From Escherichia coli (GTDB taxonomy: Bacteria > Pseudomonadota > Gammaproteobacteria > Enterobacterales > Enterobacteriaceae): a stretch of 64,000 nucleotides of DNA. Where the stretch lies: assembly GCF_003334785.1 (NCBI RefSeq), contig NZ_QOWV01000001.1; one strand, 5' to 3'. Position 1 is the first letter of the stretch, and each line of letters starts with the position of its first letter. Below are positions 28,791 to 55,617 of this stretch, in pieces. The translations under genes were made by a program, and so were the position numbers. The notes beneath the pieces were generated by a model. The model saw nothing but the letters and a program-made list of their open reading frames with translations, was not told where the DNA came from and ran no database searches.

Positions 28791-29495
28791 TCATTCTTGT
28801 GGTGAAAACAAGCATCGTGGTACCCAGAAATTATTCGGCAATCGTCCGAGGCGCATTTGATTGAGATAATTAAGGTAATCCCGGCGGGGAATTTCGCAGG
28901 CACCAAGCGATGCTGTGTGATCGTTAAGGACCTGGCAGTCGATAAGCTTACCGCCATGACCGATAAATTCCTCACAGAATACCAGAAGCGCCGTTTTAGA
29001 CGCATTTTCCATCCGGCTGAACATGGACTCGCCACAAAATAGCGTTCCCTGGGCCACGCCGTACATACCGCCGACAAGCTCATCTTCACGCCAGACTTCA
29101 ATGGAGTGGGCATGGCCGAGTTCGTGAAGGCGATGGTAGGCTTCGACCACGCCACGCGTGATCCAGGTTCCTTCTTCGCGATCGCTGGCACAGCCTTCAA
29201 TGACCTGACCAAAAGCGTAATTCATCGTGACACGATAGGGCGAGCGTTTATGAAATCGCTTCATACTACGGCTGATATGCAGTGATTCTGGCCATAGCAC
29301 CGCGCGGGGATCGGGCGACCACCAGAGGATGGGGTCGCCTGGAGAAAACCACGGAAAAATACCACGCTGGTAAGCCATTAACAGGCGCGCAGGGCTAAGA
29401 TCGCCCCCAAGTGCCAGCAGGCCGTTAGGCTCACGTAATGCGCCTTCCGGGGAAGGGAAGGCTATTGAATGGCGAGAAAGCTGAACCAGGCGCAT
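28791..29495 (-). CDS. aat: leucyl/phenylalanyl-tRNA--protein transferase
   Basis: 234-aa ORF in the conserved position between infA and cydC. Confidence 0.95.
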
Positions 29496-45476: not shown

Positions 45477-46094
45477 ATGACAACCCAGTATGGATTTTTT
45501 ATTGATTCCAGCCGTTGCACCGGTTGCAAAACCTGCGAGCTGGCCTGTAAAGACTACAAAGATTTGACGCCAGAAGTCAGCTTCCGCCGCATTTATGAAT
45601 ATGCTGGCGGCGACTGGCAGGAAGATAACGGTGTCTGGCACCAGAACGTGTTTGCCTACTATCTGTCGATTTCATGTAACCACTGCGAAGATCCGGCTTG
45701 TACTAAAGTCTGCCCGAGCGGTGCGATGCATAAACGTGAAGATGGTTTTGTTGTGGTCGATGAAGATGTGTGCATTGGCTGCCGCTACTGCCATATGGCT
45801 TGCCCGTATGGCGCACCGCAATATAACGAAACGAAAGGCCATATGACCAAATGCGATGGTTGTTATGACCGTGTTGCGGAGGGTAAAAAGCCGATCTGTG
45901 TTGAATCTTGTCCGCTGCGGGCGCTGGATTTCGGCCCTATCGACGAGCTGCGTAAAAAACATGGCGATCTGGCGGCCGTTGCGCCGTTGCCGCGAGCTCA
46001 CTTTACCAAACCGAATATTGTGATCAAACCCAATGCCAATAGCCGCCCGACCGGGGATACCACTGGCTATCTGGCAAACCCGAAGGAGGTGTGA
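45477..46094 (+). CDS. dmsB: DMSO reductase iron-sulfur subunit DmsB
   Basis: 205 aa with four ferredoxin-type Cys clusters (CxxCxxC...C). Confidence 0.95.
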   Translation: MTTQYGFFIDSSRCTGCKTCELACKDYKDLTPEVSFRRIYEYAGGDWQEDNGVWHQNVFAYYLSISCNHCEDPACTKVCPSGAMHKREDGFVVVDEDVCIGCRYCHMACPYGAPQYNETKGHMTKCDGCYDRVAEGKKPICVESCPLRALDFGPIDELRKKHGDLAAVAPLPRAHFTKPNIVIKPNANSRPTGDTTGYLANPKEV

Positions 46095-46095
46095 G

Positions 46096-46959
46096 ATGGG
46101 AAGTGGATGGCATGAATGGCCGCTGATGATCTTCACGGTCTTCGGGCAATGTGTAGCAGGTGGTTTTATCGTTCTGGCTTTGGCGCTGCTCAAAGGCGAC
46201 CTGCGAGCAGAAGCCCAGCAGCGTGTTATCGCCTGCATGTTTGGTTTATGGGTGCTGATGGGCATTGGCTTTATCGCCTCTATGCTCCATCTTGGTTCAC
46301 CAATGCGCGCTTTTAACTCGCTCAACCGGGTAGGGGCTTCAGCACTCAGTAACGAAATCGCCAGCGGTTCGATCTTTTTTGCCGTAGGCGGCATCGGCTG
46401 GTTGCTGGCAATGCTGAAAAAGCTGTCACCGGCATTGCGTACGCTGTGGCTGATAGTGACGATGGTTCTTGGCGTCATCTTTGTCTGGATGATGGTGCGT
46501 GTGTATAACAGCATTGATACCGTTCCGACCTGGTACAGCATCTGGACGCCGATGGGCTTCTTCCTGACGATGTTTATGGGCGGCCCGTTACTGGGTTACC
46601 TGTTGTTGAGTCTGGCTGGCGTCGATGGCTGGGCGATGCGTCTGCTGCCAGCAATTTCTGTACTGGCACTGGTAGTGAGTGGCGTGGTGTCAGTGATGCA
46701 GGGCGCAGAGCTGGCGACTATTCATAGTTCTGTGCAGCAGGCCGCAGCGCTGGTGCCGGACTATGGTGCGCTGATGTCCTGGCGGATCGTGCTTTTGGCC
46801 GTTGCCCTGTGCTTGTGGATTGCACCACAGCTAAAAGGTTATCAGCCTGCGGTTCCGCTACTTTCTGTATCATTCATTCTGCTTCTGGCAGGGGAATTAA
46901 TCGGTCGCGGCGTATTCTATGGTTTGCATATGACCGTGGGGATGGCCGTCGCAAGCTAA
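46096..46959 (+). CDS. dmsC: DMSO reductase membrane anchor subunit DmsC
   Basis: 287 aa from MGSGWHEWPLMIF; polytopic; the track ORF start lies inside dmsB so I use the ATG 1 bp after the dmsB stop. Confidence 0.9.
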   Translation: MGSGWHEWPLMIFTVFGQCVAGGFIVLALALLKGDLRAEAQQRVIACMFGLWVLMGIGFIASMLHLGSPMRAFNSLNRVGASALSNEIASGSIFFAVGGIGWLLAMLKKLSPALRTLWLIVTMVLGVIFVWMMVRVYNSIDTVPTWYSIWTPMGFFLTMFMGGPLLGYLLLSLAGVDGWAMRLLPAISVLALVVSGVVSVMQGAELATIHSSVQQAAALVPDYGALMSWRIVLLAVALCLWIAPQLKGYQPAVPLLSVSFILLLAGELIGRGVFYGLHMTVGMAVAS

Positions 46960-46966
46960 TCATAAC

Positions 46967-47000
46967 AACCGGGGTTTCGGCCCCGGTTCTCTTTTATTTC
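46967..47000. terminator. terminator hairpin between convergent dmsC and ycaC
   Basis: aaccgggg-tttcgg-ccccggtt stem followed by a T-rich tract; overlaps the ycaC C-terminal codons. Confidence 0.6.
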
Positions 47001-47620
47001 TGCTTCGTTAACGTGTCATAACTGGTCATCAAATTACGATAATCAGGAATGTGGTTAGAGAACAACGTCGCCAGTCCTTCAATATCATTACGCCAGTCGC
47101 GATGCAGCTCGCACGCCACGCCGAACCATGTCATCAATTGCGCACCAGCTTGCGACAAGCGATCCCATGCCGAATGCCGGGTAATTTCATTAAAGGTCCC
47201 TGACGCGTCAGTCACGACAAAGACGTCAAACCCTTCTTCAATGGCTGAAAGCGCCGGGAATGCCACGCAAACTTCGGTTACCACACCGGCAATAATTAAC
47301 TGTTTTTTACCTGTCGCTTTGACAGCTTTTACAAAATCTTCGTTATCCCAGGCGTTAATATTTCCCGGGCGAGCAATGTAAGGTGTATCGGGGAATTGTG
47401 CTTTCAGTTCTGGAACTAATGGGCCGTTAGGACCGGTTTCAAAACTGGTGGTAAGAATAGTTGGTAAGTTGAAATACTTAGCCAGGTCACCCAGCGCCAG
47501 CACGTTATTTTTAAACTTATCGGGTTCGATATCCCGTACAAGGGAAAGTAAACCAGCCTGGTGATCAACAAGCAAAACGGCAGCATCATTTTTATCAAGA
47601 CGAACATACGGTTTGGTCAT
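46994..47620 (-). CDS. ycaC: isochorismatase-family hydrolase YcaC
   Basis: 208-aa ORF with isochorismatase-like fold and conserved Cys. Confidence 0.9.
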   Translation of the reverse strand: MTKPYVRLDKNDAAVLLVDHQAGLLSLVRDIEPDKFKNNVLALGDLAKYFNLPTILTTSFETGPNGPLVPELKAQFPDTPYIARPGNINAWDNEDFVKAVKATGKKQLIIAGVVTEVCVAFPALSAIEEGFDVFVVTDASGTFNEITRHSAWDRLSQAGAQLMTWFGVACELHRDWRNDIEGLATLFSNHIPDYRNLMTSYDTLTKQK

Positions 47621-47933
47621 CCTCTTCTCCTTTCGAGAGTCAGTGGTACGTCTGAAATCGATCAGACGCGATGCATTGCTCTGAAAGCATAGACGGGAAA
47701 TATGAGTTTGCTGTGACCATGAAATTTTTCGACTGAACGAAGCGTATGAAATTTGTGTTAGTTCAATAAAAACAATCAGATGAGACTAATCATCTCTTCA
47801 GCATTAGCGTTATGAATGAGTAATATAAATCGATAATACCGCCGCTGGGATATCGCGTATTTTCACCCATTGACAATGTTTTTGGCGGTGGCATGATGCG
47901 CATGAAATTTGAACTTCCTCACGGTTTTAATTC

Positions 47934-49082
47934 ATGTCCACGTATACCCAGCCTGTCATGCTTTTGCTGTCTGGCCTGCTTTTGTTGACTCTGGCGATTG
48001 CGGTGTTAAATACACTCGTGCCGCTTTGGCTCGCCCAGGAACACATGTCCACATGGCAGGTAGGCGTTGTCAGCTCATCCTATTTTACCGGCAACCTTGT
48101 CGGTACATTGCTGACAGGGTATGTCATTAAGCGCATTGGCTTTAACCGCAGCTATTATCTGGCCTCCTTCATTTTTGCCGCTGGCTGTGCCGGCCTTGGC
48201 CTGATGATTGGATTCTGGAGCTGGTTGGCTTGGCGTTTTGTCGCGGGCGTCGGCTGTGCCATGATTTGGGTGGTTGTTGAGAGCGCGCTGATGTGCAGTG
48301 GGACGTCACGTAACCGTGGGCGTTTGCTTGCTGCGTATATGATGGTTTATTACGTGGGAACGTTTTTAGGCCAGTTACTGGTCAGCAAAGTTTCAACCGA
48401 GCTGATGTCCGTATTGCCGTGGGTTACAGGTTTGACGTTGGCAGGGATCTTACCGCTGTTGTTTACGCGTGTGCTGAATCAGCAGGCTGAAAACCATGAT
48501 TCGACGTCAATTACGTCAATGCTAAAACTCCGTCAGGCGCGGCTTGGCGTGAATGGCTGCATTATCTCAGGAATCGTTCTGGGATCTCTATATGGCCTGA
48601 TGCCGCTGTACCTCAATCACAAAGGGGTGAGCAATGCCAGCATTGGTTTCTGGATGGCGGTACTGGTCAGTGCGGGTATCCTTGGACAATGGCCGATTGG
48701 ACGTCTGGCGGATAAGTTTGGTCGACTGCTGGTGTTGCGTGTTCAGGTCTTTGTCGTCATTCTCGGCAGTATCGCGATGCTTAGCCAGGCGGCGATGGCC
48801 CCAGCGTTATTCATCCTCGGTGCCGCTGGCTTTACGCTATATCCGGTGGCGATGGCATGGGCTTGCGAGAAAGTTGAACATCATCAACTGGTGGCGATGA
48901 ACCAGGCCTTACTGTTGAGCTATACTGTGGGAAGTCTGCTTGGCCCGTCATTTACCGCTATGCTAATGCAGAATTTCTCCGATAATTTATTGTTTATCAT
49001 GATCGCCAGCGTATCGTTTATCTATTTGCTGATGCTGCTGCGCAACGCCGGTCATACGCCGAAACCCGTTGCTCACGTGTAA
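47934..49082 (+). CDS. ycaD: MFS transporter YcaD
   Basis: 382 aa with about 12 predicted TM segments. Confidence 0.85.
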
Positions 49083-49091
49083 ATGAATTCA

Positions 49092-49133
49092 AGCAGAGTG
49101 TGAACTTACTGTTTCACACTCTGCTTTTTTGTT
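49092..49133 (+). terminator. rho-independent terminator of ycaD
   Basis: agcagagtgtgaa-loop-ttcacactctgct stem followed by ttttttgttt. Confidence 0.75.
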
Positions 49134-49291
49134 TCTTCTATCTGACTTGCTTTATTCCAAATTTTATTCGTTTAAAAATAAAATGTGCAGCAGGTTATAA
49201 TTTTGCATTTCGCTATTTCCGCACTTCTTATTTGCCGCGCATAATCCCTCGTTTTACAGATGCCCCTTTAATTTTGGCGAAGGATTTGTCT

Positions 49292-50722
49292 ATGGCTGGG
49301 AATGTTCAGGAAAAACAGTTGCGATGGTACAACATTGCGCTGATGTCTTTTATCACTGTCTGGGGTTTTGGCAACGTTGTTAATAACTATGCCAACCAGG
49401 GGCTGGTGGTTGTTTTTTCATGGGTGTTTATCTTTGCACTCTATTTCACACCTTATGCGCTAATTGTTGGTCAGTTAGGCTCGACCTTCAAAGATGGGAA
49501 GGGCGGGGTCAGTACCTGGATTAAACACACGATGGGACCCGGACTGGCTTATCTCGCCGCGTGGACCTACTGGGTGGTGCATATTCCCTATCTGGCACAA
49601 AAACCCCAGGCAATTCTGATTGCGCTCGGTTGGGCGATGAAAGGCGACGGTTCGCTAATCAAAGAATATTCAGTCGTAGCGTTACAGGGGTTAACGCTGG
49701 TGCTGTTTATCTTCTTTATGTGGGTTGCTTCACGCGGTATGAAATCGCTGAAAATCGTCGGTTCTGTGGCAGGGATTGCTATGTTTGTTATGTCGCTCCT
49801 GTATGTGGCGATGGCGGTAACCGCGCCTGCAATTACTGAAGTGCATATTGCGACCACAAACATTACCTGGGAAACGTTCATTCCTCATATCGACTTTACC
49901 TACATTACCACTATTTCAATGCTGGTTTTCGCGGTTGGCGGAGCAGAGAAGATTTCTCCTTACGTTAATCAAACGCGCAACCCAGGAAAAGAATTTCCAA
50001 AAGGGATGTTATGCCTGGCGGTGATGGTTGCGGTTTGTGCCATTCTGGGCTCGCTGGCGATGGGGATGATGTTTGATTCGCGTAATATCCCGGATGACTT
50101 AATGACCAACGGTCAGTATTACGCCTTTCAGAAGCTGGGCGAGTATTACAACATGGGTAATACTTTAATGGTGATTTACGCCATTGCGAATACCCTGGGA
50201 CAAGTAGCGGCGCTGGTATTCTCGATTGATGCCCCGCTTAAAGTGCTATTAGGTGATGCTGACAGCAAATATATTCCAGCCAGTTTATGTCGTACCAACG
50301 CTTCTGGTACGCCCGTTAATGGCTATTTTCTGACCCTGGTACTGGTGGCGATTCTGATTATGCTGCCGACTCTCGGCATTGGTGATATGAACAATCTCTA
50401 TAAATGGCTGTTGAACCTTAATTCGGTAGTGATGCCGCTGCGTTATTTATGGGTATTTGTTGCATTTATTGCAGTCGTTCGCTTGGCGCAGAAATATAAA
50501 CCAGAATATGTCTTTATTCGTAATAAGCCTCTGGCAATGACCGTCGGGATTTGGTGTTTTGCCTTTACCGCCTTTGCCTGTTTGACGGGGATCTTCCCGA
50601 AAATGGAAGCCTTCACTGCAGAGTGGACCTTCCAGTTGGCGCTGAATGTTGCAACGCCGTTTGTGCTGGTAGGATTAGGACTGATATTCCCGCTGCTGGC
50701 GCGTAAAGCGAATAGTAAATAA
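49292..50722 (+). CDS. ycaM: APC-superfamily amino-acid transporter YcaM
   Basis: 476 aa from MAGNVQEKQLRWYNIALMSF; the track ORF start at 49100 runs through the ycaD terminator and is rejected. Confidence 0.8.
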   Translation: MAGNVQEKQLRWYNIALMSFITVWGFGNVVNNYANQGLVVVFSWVFIFALYFTPYALIVGQLGSTFKDGKGGVSTWIKHTMGPGLAYLAAWTYWVVHIPYLAQKPQAILIALGWAMKGDGSLIKEYSVVALQGLTLVLFIFFMWVASRGMKSLKIVGSVAGIAMFVMSLLYVAMAVTAPAITEVHIATTNITWETFIPHIDFTYITTISMLVFAVGGAEKISPYVNQTRNPGKEFPKGMLCLAVMVAVCAILGSLAMGMMFDSRNIPDDLMTNGQYYAFQKLGEYYNMGNTLMVIYAIANTLGQVAALVFSIDAPLKVLLGDADSKYIPASLCRTNASGTPVNGYFLTLVLVAILIMLPTLGIGDMNNLYKWLLNLNSVVMPLRYLWVFVAFIAVVRLAQKYKPEYVFIRNKPLAMTVGIWCFAFTAFACLTGIFPKMEAFTAEWTFQLALNVATPFVLVGLGLIFPLLARKANSK

Positions 50723-51631
50723 TTATTGTGGTCGGTGACGCTGACTCTGGCAGATCTGACCCGTTTTTACATAATCGAGAAATGCGCGCAAGCCGCAGGA
50801 CATATACTGGCGGTTTGGATAATAGATCTGGAAGCCTGGACGCTCTGTGCTCCAGTCTTCCAGTACACATTCTAAACGACCAGTATCAAGGTACTCCTTG
50901 ATCTGTTCATAGAGCAGATACCCGATACCAGCACCCATCAAAACGGCCTCCAGTTCAGCATCAACATCATCCAGAATGATATTTCCTGCGACAGCAATTT
51001 CCAGCTCCTTTGCAAATTGCCAGTGGAAAGGTTTGCCGCTGGGATAACGAAAAACAACACATTGATGATTAAGCAGATCATGAGGATGGCGGGGTTTGCC
51101 ATATCTTGCAAAGTACTCTGGCGTTGCTGCTACACATAATTTCACTGGCGGGCCGATCGCCACGCTGATCATATCTTTTTCGACGATGCAACTAAGTCGA
51201 ACGCCAGCGTCAAAGCCCTGTTGGACGATATCGACAAGAGAGTCGTCAGTTGTGAGCTCGACTTTAATATCAGGATATTCACGTGTGAAACCAACCAGTA
51301 AAGACATTAAAAATATACGTGCAGCTACCCGGGCGGCATTGATTTTGAGCGTTCCTGTCGGTGTCAGACGAAAATCATTCATCTCATCTAACATGATCTG
51401 AATTTCGTCGAAAGCTGGGCGCAATCGTTCATAGAGATTAGAACCCGCTTCCGTTAACGATACGCTTCGGGTTGTCCGATTGAATAAGCGAATTTTAAGA
51501 CGTTGTTCCAGTGTTTTAATACTATGGCTAATGGCGGACGAGGATAAGCCTAACTCATCGCCCGCTGCACGAAAGCTTTGATTACGGGCCACGGCAAAGA
51601 AAGTGGCAAAGTCAGACATATTCATCCGCAT
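50723..51631 (-). CDS. ycaN: LysR-family transcriptional regulator YcaN
   Basis: 302 aa; N-terminal HTH plus LysR substrate-binding domain; divergent from ycaK. Confidence 0.85.
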   Translation of the reverse strand: MRMNMSDFATFFAVARNQSFRAAGDELGLSSSAISHSIKTLEQRLKIRLFNRTTRSVSLTEAGSNLYERLRPAFDEIQIMLDEMNDFRLTPTGTLKINAARVAARIFLMSLLVGFTREYPDIKVELTTDDSLVDIVQQGFDAGVRLSCIVEKDMISVAIGPPVKLCVAATPEYFARYGKPRHPHDLLNHQCVVFRYPSGKPFHWQFAKELEIAVAGNIILDDVDAELEAVLMGAGIGYLLYEQIKEYLDTGRLECVLEDWSTERPGFQIYYPNRQYMSCGLRAFLDYVKTGQICQSQRHRPQ

Positions 51632-51730
51632 TAGTGAAAATCCTTCATTAACTCATCCTGAATCATCACGTTTACAGGATTATGCCGCCTGCGTAAAGTG
51701 CGCTCCAGAACTTAACGTGGAGGTAAAATT

Positions 51731-52321
51731 ATGCAGTCTGAACGTATTTATTTGGTATGGGCCCATCCTCGTCATGATTCATTGACCGCACATATTGCTG
51801 ATGCGATCCATCAGCGGGCAATGGAGCGGAAAATACAGGTGACGGAACTCGATTTATATCGGCGTAATTTCAACCCAGTGATGACGCCGGAAGATGAACC
51901 AGACTGGAAGAATATGGATAAACGTTATTCTCCAGAGGTTCATCAGCTTTATTCAGAGCTGCTTGAACATGACACGTTAGTGGTGGTTTTTCCTCTCTGG
52001 TGGTACAGCTTCCCGGCAATGCTAAAAGGATATATTGACAGAGTATGGAATAATGGGCTGGCTTATGGAGATGGGCACAAATTACCATTCAATAAAGTTC
52101 GTTGGGTGGCGCTGGTTGGAGGAGACAAAGAATCATTTGTCCAGATGGGCTGGGAAAAAAATATAAGCGATTATTTAAAAAATATGTGCAGTTATCTTGG
52201 TATTGAAGATGCCGATGTCACTTTCTTGTGTAATACAGTGGTATTCGATGGGGAAGAACTTCACGCGAGCTATTATCAGTCGTTATTATCTCAGGTACGG
52301 GATATGGTAGATGCACTATAA
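51731..52321 (+). CDS. ycaK: NAD(P)H dehydrogenase (quinone)-like flavodoxin-fold protein YcaK
   Basis: 196-aa ORF with flavodoxin-like fold. Confidence 0.85.
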   Translation: MQSERIYLVWAHPRHDSLTAHIADAIHQRAMERKIQVTELDLYRRNFNPVMTPEDEPDWKNMDKRYSPEVHQLYSELLEHDTLVVVFPLWWYSFPAMLKGYIDRVWNNGLAYGDGHKLPFNKVRWVALVGGDKESFVQMGWEKNISDYLKNMCSYLGIEDADVTFLCNTVVFDGEELHASYYQSLLSQVRDMVDAL

Positions 52322-52360
52322 GATGTGTTAAAAACGCTGTAGCAGAATGAAGCGCGGAAT

Positions 52361-52393
52361 AAAAAAGCGGCAACTCAATAAAGTTGCCGCTTT
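52361..52393. terminator. terminator hairpin between ycaK and pflA (stronger for pflA)
   Basis: gcggcaact-caataa-agttgccgc stem; 6-nt U-run on the minus strand, short T-run on the plus strand. Confidence 0.65.
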
Positions 52394-52402
52394 ACGGGGA
52401 AA

Positions 52403-53143
52403 TTAGAACATTACCTTATGACCGTACTGCTCAAGAATGCCTTTCACGCGTTCCATGGTCTCTTTCTTCGGTGGTTTAACACCGTCGAGTTTGTACTCTT
52501 CACCCATTGCCACCCATTTGTGTTTGCCCAGCTCGTGGTAGGGGAGAAGCTCGATTTTCTCAACGTTGCCCATATCACGGGTAAATTCACCGAGGCGATG
52601 CGCTGAATCGTCATCGTCAGACCAGCCTGGGACAACAACGTAGCGGATCCACACCTTCACATTTTTGTTCGCCAGATATTTAGCGAACTCCAGCGTGCGG
52701 TGGTTGGAAACTCCAACCAGATTTTGGTGGATCTCGTCGTTCATCTGTTTGAGATCGAGCATTACCAGGTCGGTTACTTCCAGCAGTTCATCAATCACCG
52801 GATCGTAACGACGAACAAAACCGTTGGTGTCCAGACAGGTATGAATGCCTTCTTTTTTGCAGGCGCGGAACCAGTCACGAACAAACTCAGCTTGCAGGAT
52901 TGCTTCACCGCCGGATGCGGTAACGCCGCCGCCGGAAGCGTTCATAAAGTGGCGATAGGTCACCACTTCCTTCATCAAATCTTCAACGGTAACTTCTTTA
53001 CCGCCATGCGTGTCCCAGGTGTCGCGGTTATGACAATACAGGCAGCGCATCAGGCAGCCCTGGAAAAAGGTGATAAAGCGAATACCTGGGCCGTCTACGG
53101 TTCCACAGGATTCAAAGGAGTGAATGCGACCAATAACTGACAT
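52403..53143 (-). CDS. pflA: pyruvate formate-lyase activating enzyme
   Basis: 246 aa from [15 protein letters not shown]; radical-SAM CxxxCxxC ([10 protein letters not shown]). Confidence 0.95.
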
Positions 53144-53260
53144 TGCGGTGTTTCTCCAGATGTGGCCCATCTGAGGCCGTGTTGGTGCGCAGCTCGAAGG
53201 CTACGTCGAGTCTGTTTTGGCAGTCACCTTAAAGTATAGATAGCTGACAAAAAAGGCTCT

Positions 53261-53292
53261 CGCGCTAAAAAAGGCCCCACTTTCGTGGAGCC
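53261..53292 (-). terminator. rho-independent terminator downstream of pflB
   Basis: ggcuccac-gaaa-guggggcc stem (one G-U pair) followed by a U-run on the minus strand. Confidence 0.65.
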
Positions 53293-53334
53293 TTTATTGT
53301 ACGCTTTTTACTGTACGATTTCAGTCAAATCTAA

Positions 53335-55617
<2,283 letters not shown>

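Follow-up and report, generated by a model that had tools for sequence, protein, structure and literature searches.

The 64,000-nucleotide stretch of Escherichia coli DNA analyzed here (contig NZ_QOWV01000001.1 of assembly GCF_003334785.1; hereafter the window) carries five genes between positions 46994 and 52321, namely ycaC, ycaD, ycaM, ycaN and ycaK, which fill the interval between dmsC, ending at 46959, and pflA, which starts at 52403 on the minus strand. The open reading frame (ORF) listing and the annotation of E. coli K-12 MG1655 agree on this layout. An earlier note had read the five genes as one small catabolic or detoxification module, with a LysR regulator, ycaN, divergent from ycaK; its gene order, coordinates and dms/pfl flanks were borne out by both sources, and its family assignments for all five proteins by NCBIfam models. 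A single module is not what the present data describe. We estimate at about three in four the probability that the block consists of four independent units lodged between two conserved operons, dmsABC and focA-pflBA, in an interval of variable content, with only ycaN-ycaK forming a functional module. The four units are a monocistronic hydrolase gene (ycaC), a core MFS transporter gene with its own promoter and terminator (ycaD), an accessory APC permease gene (ycaM) and the ycaN-ycaK cassette.

The genes and the region are already annotated and have been partly studied. By alignment, the block corresponds to positions 944931-950258 of MG1655 (window position plus 897,937), with identical gene names, and window positions 46000-53500 (7,501 bases) differ from MG1655 by two mismatches, at 49258 (A in the window versus C, upstream of ycaM) and at 49795 (G versus A, within ycaM). 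The window thus derives from a close relative of K-12 and is neither MG1655 nor W3110; many non-K-12 strains match the window region at 100%.

Three strand switches occur within the five-gene block according to the ORF listing (Table 1), and the five genes do not form a co-transcribed unit, with a terminator between ycaD and ycaM and further terminators at both ends of the block. The longest ORF of ycaM begins at a GTG (49100) that falls within the terminator hairpin of ycaD; the plausible start is the annotated ATG, at 49292, which has a GAAGGA Shine-Dalgarno sequence. At the other end of the gene, the ycaM stop codon (TAA) abuts the reverse complement of the ycaN stop codon (TTA) at 50720-50725, leaving an intergenic distance of zero, and the terminator scan found no terminator between the two genes, so that the convergent transcripts would be expected to overlap. 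ycaN and ycaK are indeed divergent, with a spacer of 99 bp. ycaC is listed in RegulonDB as its own transcription unit and is induced through the YdeO-GadE cascade (PMC4222967). Published base-mean read counts from glucose M9 medium amount to 1012 for ycaC, 397 for ycaD, 18 for ycaM, 65 for ycaN and 74 for ycaK (PMC8464067 dataset), a spread of roughly 50-fold among the five genes.

Table 1. Features of the dmsC-pflA interval, in window coordinates.
Feature	Position	Strand	Description	Basis
Hairpin, bidirectional terminator	46967..46988		GC-rich; between dmsC (stop 46959) and ycaC (stop 46994)	terminator scan, sequence
ycaC	46994-47620	-	isochorismatase-like cysteine hydrolase, monocistronic	NF041461
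ycaC/ycaD divergent intergenic region	47621..47933		313 bp	sequence
ycaD promoter-like site	TTGACA at 47870; CATGAT ending at 47897		16-nt spacer	promoter scan
ycaD	47934-49082	+	MFS transporter	PRK03633
Intrinsic terminator 3' of ycaD, strong	49091-49132	+	14-bp perfect stem and T run	
ycaM promoter-like site	49172-49201		own site, plus Shine-Dalgarno sequence	scan
ycaM	49292-50722	+	APC-family permease, YjeM/GadC-like	
ycaN	50723-51631	-	LysR-type transcriptional regulator	PF00126, PF03466
YcaN-type LysR box, predicted	51631..51651	-	21 nt, TTAATGAAGGATTTTCACTAA; core TGAAGGATTTTCA at 51634-51646	alignments, position weight matrix
ycaK promoter, predicted	51671..51699	+	TTTACA 51671-51676, 17-nt spacer, TAAAGT 51694-51699	scan
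ycaK	51731-52321	+	Flavodoxin_2/NQO-type NAD(P)H oxidoreductase; predicted YcaN target	PRK09739
Hairpin, bidirectional terminator	52364..52393		strong; between ycaK and pflA	terminator scan

The genes are also inherited separately. Within-species counts were made over 5,426 complete E. coli genomes, a segment being scored as present at a coverage of at least 80%. The ycaC-ycaD segment was present in 5,423 genomes, ycaM in 4,358 and intact ycaN-ycaK in 3,316 (61%), and 39% of the genomes keep ycaC-ycaD without ycaN. Two distinct deletion haplotypes account for these differing counts. In the O157:H7-type haplotype (about 1,049 genomes), window positions 50836-52346 are swapped for about 40 bp, which removes most of ycaN and all of ycaK and leaves a 113-bp remnant of the 3' end of ycaN, annotated as a pseudogene. 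In the Seattle 1946-type haplotype (about 1,054-1,061 genomes), positions 49133-52360, comprising ycaM, ycaN and ycaK, are cleanly absent, with breakpoints directly past the ycaD terminator and directly ahead of the pflA terminator. Plasmid-labelled E. coli records hold 6-8 matches to ycaC-ycaD, ycaM and ycaN-ycaK; these could be chromosomal segments on large plasmids or errors of assembly labelling.

Across the Enterobacteriaceae examined, ycaD is the only constant gene of the dmsC-pflA interval, and ycaC, ycaM and ycaN-ycaK vary independently between genera, so that the five genes show no co-inheritance at this scale either. The slot holds ycaD, ycaN and ycaK in Shimwellia; the same three genes and a CBAH-LysR pair in Pseudocitrobacter; ycaD and ycaM in Salmonella, where sopD lies between pflA and pflB; ycaC, ycaD and ycaM in E. 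fergusonii, where dmsABC is absent; ycaC, ycaD and a phosphotransferase system (PTS)/transketolase island in C. freundii; and ycaD with one hypothetical gene in Enterobacter asburiae. Identity of the E. coli proteins to those of Pseudocitrobacter and Shimwellia is 79% and 68% for YcaN, 82% and 62% for DmsC, and 82% and 76% for YcaD. A recent horizontal import of ycaN-ycaK into E. coli was considered and rejected on account of this DmsC- and YcaD-like divergence together with the slot shared with Shimwellia and Pseudocitrobacter. Shared slot and flank-like divergence favor ycaN-ycaK as an old resident of vertical descent that was lost repeatedly.

Conservation of the ycaN-ycaK pair was explored through a scan of species-representative genomes with a YcaN alignment, coupled with targeted look-ups, and flanks of 6-10 kb were inspected where the contig allowed. 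The matches listed by the scan are mostly LysR paralogues 40-50% identical to YcaN, useful as negatives only. The spread of YcaN itself is patchy, the best matches beyond Escherichia/Shigella being found in Pseudocitrobacter (79%) and a Budviciaceae bacterium (76%), followed by Hafnia, Shimwellia, Serratia and others. In all 11 examined non-E. coli loci in which YcaN is at least 56% identical (with one locus at 52% counted among them), a YcaK homologue of 47-67% identity is transcribed divergently at a distance of about 100-140 bp; the loci are those of Rahnella, two Cedecea species, Enterobacter sp. Ag1, Pseudomonas sp., Pseudocitrobacter, Shimwellia, Hafnia, Serratia, the Budviciaceae bacterium and Janthinobacterium (the locus at 52%). 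A second Janthinobacterium locus, with a YcaN homologue 45% identical, has the same divergent arrangement, and a YcaK neighbor is absent beside two YcaN paralogues of 51-52% identity, in Cedecea neteri and Enterobacter sp. Ag1. No homologue of YcaC or YcaM occurs in the fetched flanks of 12 non-E. coli ycaN-ycaK loci, and a YcaD orthologue lies nearby only in two syntenic Enterobacteriaceae, the contexts being otherwise unrelated. In an all-against-all comparison of 10 loci, YcaK and YcaN were the only ORF families common to all.

The helix-turn-helix domain PF00126 and the substrate-binding domain PF03466 are present on the representative of the 99%-identical YcaN cluster and on all full-length homologues, and YcaN matches many LysR models of NCBIfam, all under their equivalog cut-offs. 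YcaK scores 354.3 bits against NF007280 (PRK09739; cut-off 162), an NAD(P)H oxidoreductase model, the next-best NCBIfam models being KefF and KefG, and its orthologues carry PF02525. Its nearest PDB entries are of the NQO type, namely 4R81, 3LCM, NQO1 and NQO2 (E-values of 1e-14 to 1e-8), a likeness to the NQO1/NQO2/azoreductase superfamily from which YcaK is predicted to be a member of the NQO-type flavoprotein NAD(P)H quinone oxidoreductase family. The P. aeruginosa protein PA1225 is a proposed azoreductase/NQO homologue (PMC4051601), and E. coli ycaK and PA1225 (labelled ycaK) share one screened oxidoreductase library (PMC3596305). Our literature search met E. coli ycaK only as a member of that kind of screening library and found neither a solved structure nor a substrate for its product.

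The ycaN-ycaK spacer was aligned twice, over 10 Enterobacterales genera and over 9 taxa including Pseudomonas and Janthinobacterium, and both alignments display conserved blocks amid a variable background. One block is the predicted YcaN box TTAATGAAGGATTTTCACTAA, 5' of the ycaN ATG, whose core TGAAGGATTTTCA is a T-N11-A dyad lying 3-15 nt before the ATG; within it, TGA-N7-TCA is invariant even in Pseudomonas and Janthinobacterium. Two others, ACTTTA and CTGTAAA, correspond on the opposite strand to the ycaK -10 and -35 hexamers that the promoter scan had found independently, and both hexamers are conserved in the 10 Enterobacterales genera. The remaining blocks are an opposite-strand ATAAT, which could be the ycaN -10 element, and ATT(T/C)(G/A)(A/G)(G/T)AT between the blocks. 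About 66 bp separate the center of the box, at 51640, from the ycaK transcription start predicted downstream of it at about 51706. LysR regulators classically have a recognition site near -65 of the target promoter and an activation site near -35. With respect to the predicted start, the box would thus occupy the classical position of a LysR recognition site.

The site stands alone in the window. The 21-mer is unique in the 64 kb when up to 3 mismatches are allowed, and a position weight matrix (PWM) built from the orthologues scores 36 bits at the box, the next value being 16.2 bits (inside pflB), compared with shuffled sequences, whose maxima average 13.6 and reach 20 at most. No YcaN-type box was found by the PWM 5' of ycaC, ycaD or ycaM (2.6 bits in the ycaC/ycaD spacer and -0.2 in the ycaD/ycaM spacer), and the region upstream of focA scores 6.6 bits. 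Further boxes were sought in the window with the 21-mer at up to 3 mismatches, with a degenerate dyad and with the PWM, and only the ycaN-ycaK site stands out. The perfect palindrome ATGAAATCGCTTCAT at 29250-29264 was discarded, as it fits the degenerate dyad only, for which 3 matches were obtained against 1.16 expected, within chance.

The closest known system is CrgA-mdaB. The top PDB match of YcaN is 3MZ1, a putative regulator without a name (E 3.9e-33); second comes 3HHG (E 3.4e-29, residues 1-289), which is CrgA of Neisseria meningitidis. CrgA represses its own gene and activates the divergent mdaB, encoding a putative NADPH quinone oxidoreductase, via footprinted T-N11-A sites in the spacer, and CrgA-mdaB induction follows exposure to a quinone reductase inducer (PMC2724274). 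Common to both pairs are a regulator gene divergent from a gene of the flavoprotein quinone-reductase type and a T-N11-A motif in a short spacer, placed over the promoter or leader of the regulator and upstream of the target -35 element. The pairs differ in that YcaK belongs to another subfamily (PRK09739, then KefF and KefG) than MdaB, and in that CrgA has two footprinted T-N11-A sites whereas ycaN-ycaK has one clear conserved box and blocks near the -35 element; moreover, autorepression and effector-dependent activation are published for CrgA, while regulation of ycaK by YcaN is a prediction from sequence. Compared with classical LysR-type regulators and their divergent targets, YcaN has the usual HTH_1 and LysR_substrate domains, the 99-bp spacer and a T-N11-A motif centered about 66 bp before the predicted start, but its box is unusually near the start codon of the regulator and covers its Shine-Dalgarno sequence.

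By this analogy, the best-supported model is that YcaN-YcaK would work like CrgA-MdaB, with a LysR sensor that controls its own gene and, upon a quinone-like or electrophilic signal, turns on a two-electron reductase of the flavoprotein type. YcaN would bind the conserved T-N11-A box at 51634-51646, and the overlap of the box with the ycaN leader and Shine-Dalgarno sequence would lead to ycaN autorepression. YcaN would then activate the ycaK promoter on meeting its effector, for which a quinone-like or electrophilic compound, or something derived from it, is the most plausible candidate, and YcaK would reduce that compound with NAD(P)H; binding, direction of regulation, effector and substrate are what we infer here. 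The detoxification module of the earlier note is supported in reduced form, as a probable ycaN-ycaK regulator-target pair of the detoxification type, the divergent layout, the spacer of about 100 bp, the box and the promoter being conserved in at least 10 genera. A more specific version, to which we assign a low probability, sees ycaN-ycaK as a widespread, repeatedly lost sensor-detoxifier cassette for a specific quinone-like or electrophilic compound, with the level of the regulator possibly tuned in Escherichia by convergent transcription from ycaM. If this cassette reading were true, E. coli lineages with and without the pair, which is present in 61% of the complete genomes, would differ ecologically.

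The published functional data on YcaN come mainly from two studies. RNA-seq and Biolog plates applied to a ycaN deletion (Rodionova et al. 2022, PMC9068703) returned 702 differentially expressed genes, including tnaAB, astCADBE and lsr, as well as a formate-utilization defect; ycaC was down, and ycaD and focA were up. That study concludes that YcaN "regulates adjacent y-genes" and has ycaC and ycaD as targets in its Table 6, yet lists the role of YcaN as unknown. Chromatin immunoprecipitation with exonuclease digestion (ChIP-exo; Gao et al. 2021, PMC8464067 Dataset S4) placed YcaN at six sites, cspE, ynjB, yobF, ung, rho and yihQ, with signal-to-noise values of 1.06-4.45. At least the yihQ and ynjB peaks recur at identical coordinates in the tables of other regulators, and peaks shared by many unrelated regulators including YcaN lie at yihQ (~4066580), uxaC (~3242820), cspA (~3717903), rplC/rpsJ (~3451330) and uxaB (~1608739); this recurrence suggests hyper-ChIPable sites or artefacts rather than specific binding. 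A "ycaN" row in the table of another regulator was disregarded, its coordinate, 939919, not fitting the gene. Our literature search found no electrophoretic mobility shift or reporter data on YcaN.

Several observations weigh against four independent units with a YcaN-controlled ycaK. The ycaN Shine-Dalgarno sequence (AAGGA) coincides with part of the left half of the box, and translation signals may thus account for some of the conservation of the box, and the ycaK transcription start that sets the spacing of the box is itself a prediction of the promoter scan. ChIP-exo, carried out in glucose M9 with no inducer, gave no YcaN peak in the ycaN-ycaK spacer or elsewhere in the yca locus (PMC8464067), and the main text of PMC9068703 does not place ycaK among the changed neighbors. 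The changes of ycaC, ycaD and focA in the ycaN deletion also leave some room for a YcaN-dependent effect on neighbors. The altered ycaC and ycaD levels also speak for a catabolic or detoxification module of all five genes under YcaN control, with transporters that would import or export a compound and YcaC and YcaK processing it, as do the adjacency of the genes and their plausible complement of one regulator, two transporters and two enzymes. Nevertheless, two neighbors among 702 changed genes are weak evidence, the ChIP-exo data hold no site at the locus, and local cis effects may have come from the Keio kanamycin insertion in ycaN, which lies near pflA, pflB and focA. Considering in addition the missing boxes 5' of ycaC, ycaD and ycaM, the separate terminated units, the E. 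coli genomes with ycaC-ycaD and no ycaN, and the 12 loci of other genera with ycaN-ycaK and neither ycaC nor ycaM, we find the five-gene module very improbable.

Improbable to a slightly lesser degree is a unit of three genes, which Rodionova et al. call the "conserved cluster ycaN-ycaK-ycaM". It would be coupled as an excludon, high ycaM lowering YcaN and vice versa, and it draws on the abutting stop codons with no terminator between them, on the presence of ycaM-ycaN as a convergent excludon in an ExcludonFinder list derived from RNA-seq coverage (PMC12288877), and on the Seattle 1946-type haplotype, which drops all three genes at once. Nonetheless, ycaM occurs without ycaN-ycaK in Salmonella, in E. 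fergusonii and in the E. coli genomes of the O157:H7 type, ycaN-ycaK occurs without ycaM in the 12 other loci, and the convergent neighbor of ycaN in Shimwellia and Pseudocitrobacter is ycaD. The ycaM/ycaN convergent arrangement is thus not conserved outside Escherichia, and with these distributions the coupling looks like an accident of adjacency in Escherichia. Least probable in our judgment is that YcaN acts mainly elsewhere, on amino-acid, formate or threonine-related metabolism, and that the adjacency of ycaK has no regulatory meaning. The breadth of the ycaN-deletion response, its formate phenotype and the ChIP-exo peaks at distant genes speak for such a role, but all six peaks are weak, at least two of them recur for other transcription factors, and a partner, spacer length, box and promoter conserved across genera are hard to explain without local regulation.

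For practical purposes, the division into independent units means that the five genes are better studied unit by unit than as a single module. The concrete prediction is that YcaN, at 51634-51646, controls ycaK, with CrgA-mdaB as a model, and the E. coli lineages without ycaN-ycaK or without ycaM-ycaN-ycaK constitute natural variants for phenotype comparison. The significance is modest, these being long-annotated K-12 y-genes for which the published ycaN-mutant transcriptomics and phenotype arrays revealed no function; the conserved YcaN box, the ycaK promoter and the natural deletion haplotypes are the new and testable elements. The region has also served as a genetic tool, with ycaN::Km serving as a pflB-linked neutral marker (PMC4158980) and the ycaC/ycaD spacer as a neutral integration site in the literature.

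The three remaining proteins were assigned to families as follows. YcaC scores 403.5 bits against the equivalog NF041461 (cut-off 310; NCBIfam) and matches PDB 1YAC over its full length (461.6 bits), and Asp19, Arg84 and Cys118 are all present in the window protein, as read from its translation against PMC4519933. It is the same known protein as YcaC of PDB 1YAC, without any difference, and falls with P. aeruginosa YcaC (4WGF) among the octameric isochorismatase-like cysteine hydrolases; the 77% identity to the P. aeruginosa protein and the high conservation have already been remarked upon (PMC4519933). Acinetobacter YcaC reaches 83-85% protein identity to that of E. coli (contigs L056 14816-15439, L065 16140-16763 and L070 18417-19040). 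There, ycaC adjoins another LysR gene, whose product is 22% identical to YcaN, and the L056 Acinetobacter contig has in addition a YcaC paralogue of 48% identity with a LysR gene oriented divergently from it. YcaD scores 728 bits against the MFS model NF002962 (PRK03633; cut-off 361), with orthologues 85-90% identical in Citrobacter, Salmonella, E. fergusonii, Enterobacter and Leclercia. YcaM stays below the equivalog cut-offs of NCBIfam (161 bits versus 400 for YjeM and 102 versus 640 for GadC), and its orthologues carry PF13520 and PF00324; on these matches, it is an APC-superfamily permease related to YjeM and GadC. A preprint ties ycaM to colistin sensitivity.

An Rfam scan of 46800-52600 at a permissive E-value returned two sub-threshold chance matches and no RNA family, PADLOC gave zero defense-system matches for the five proteins, and the ORF listing and a repeat search found no mobility genes, flanking direct repeats or remnants of insertion sequences (IS) in the window. 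The GC content at third codon positions is 0.61 for ycaD, akin to the dms and pfl flanks (0.55-0.62), and 0.41-0.53 for ycaC, ycaM, ycaN and ycaK.

Other genomes display further rearrangements around the interval. In E. fergusonii (L088), ycaC lies directly 3' of serS. In Salmonella enterica, the gene between pflA and pflB encodes a SopD-family effector (L087 11452-12411), which makes the pflA-pflB junction an insertion point as well. In a Citrobacter freundii-type metagenome contig (L089 8195-12973 and 13860-14855), ycaM-ycaN-ycaK is replaced by PTS genes (EIIA, EIIB and EIIC-GAT), a split transketolase and an RpiR-type regulator, and a phage integrase gene follows pflA. Finally, E. coli FORC 064 and at least 9 other strains carry IS421 (IS4-like) between dmsC and ycaC (L001 2655-3767, equivalent to window positions ~46960-46993), these strains being otherwise 100% identical.

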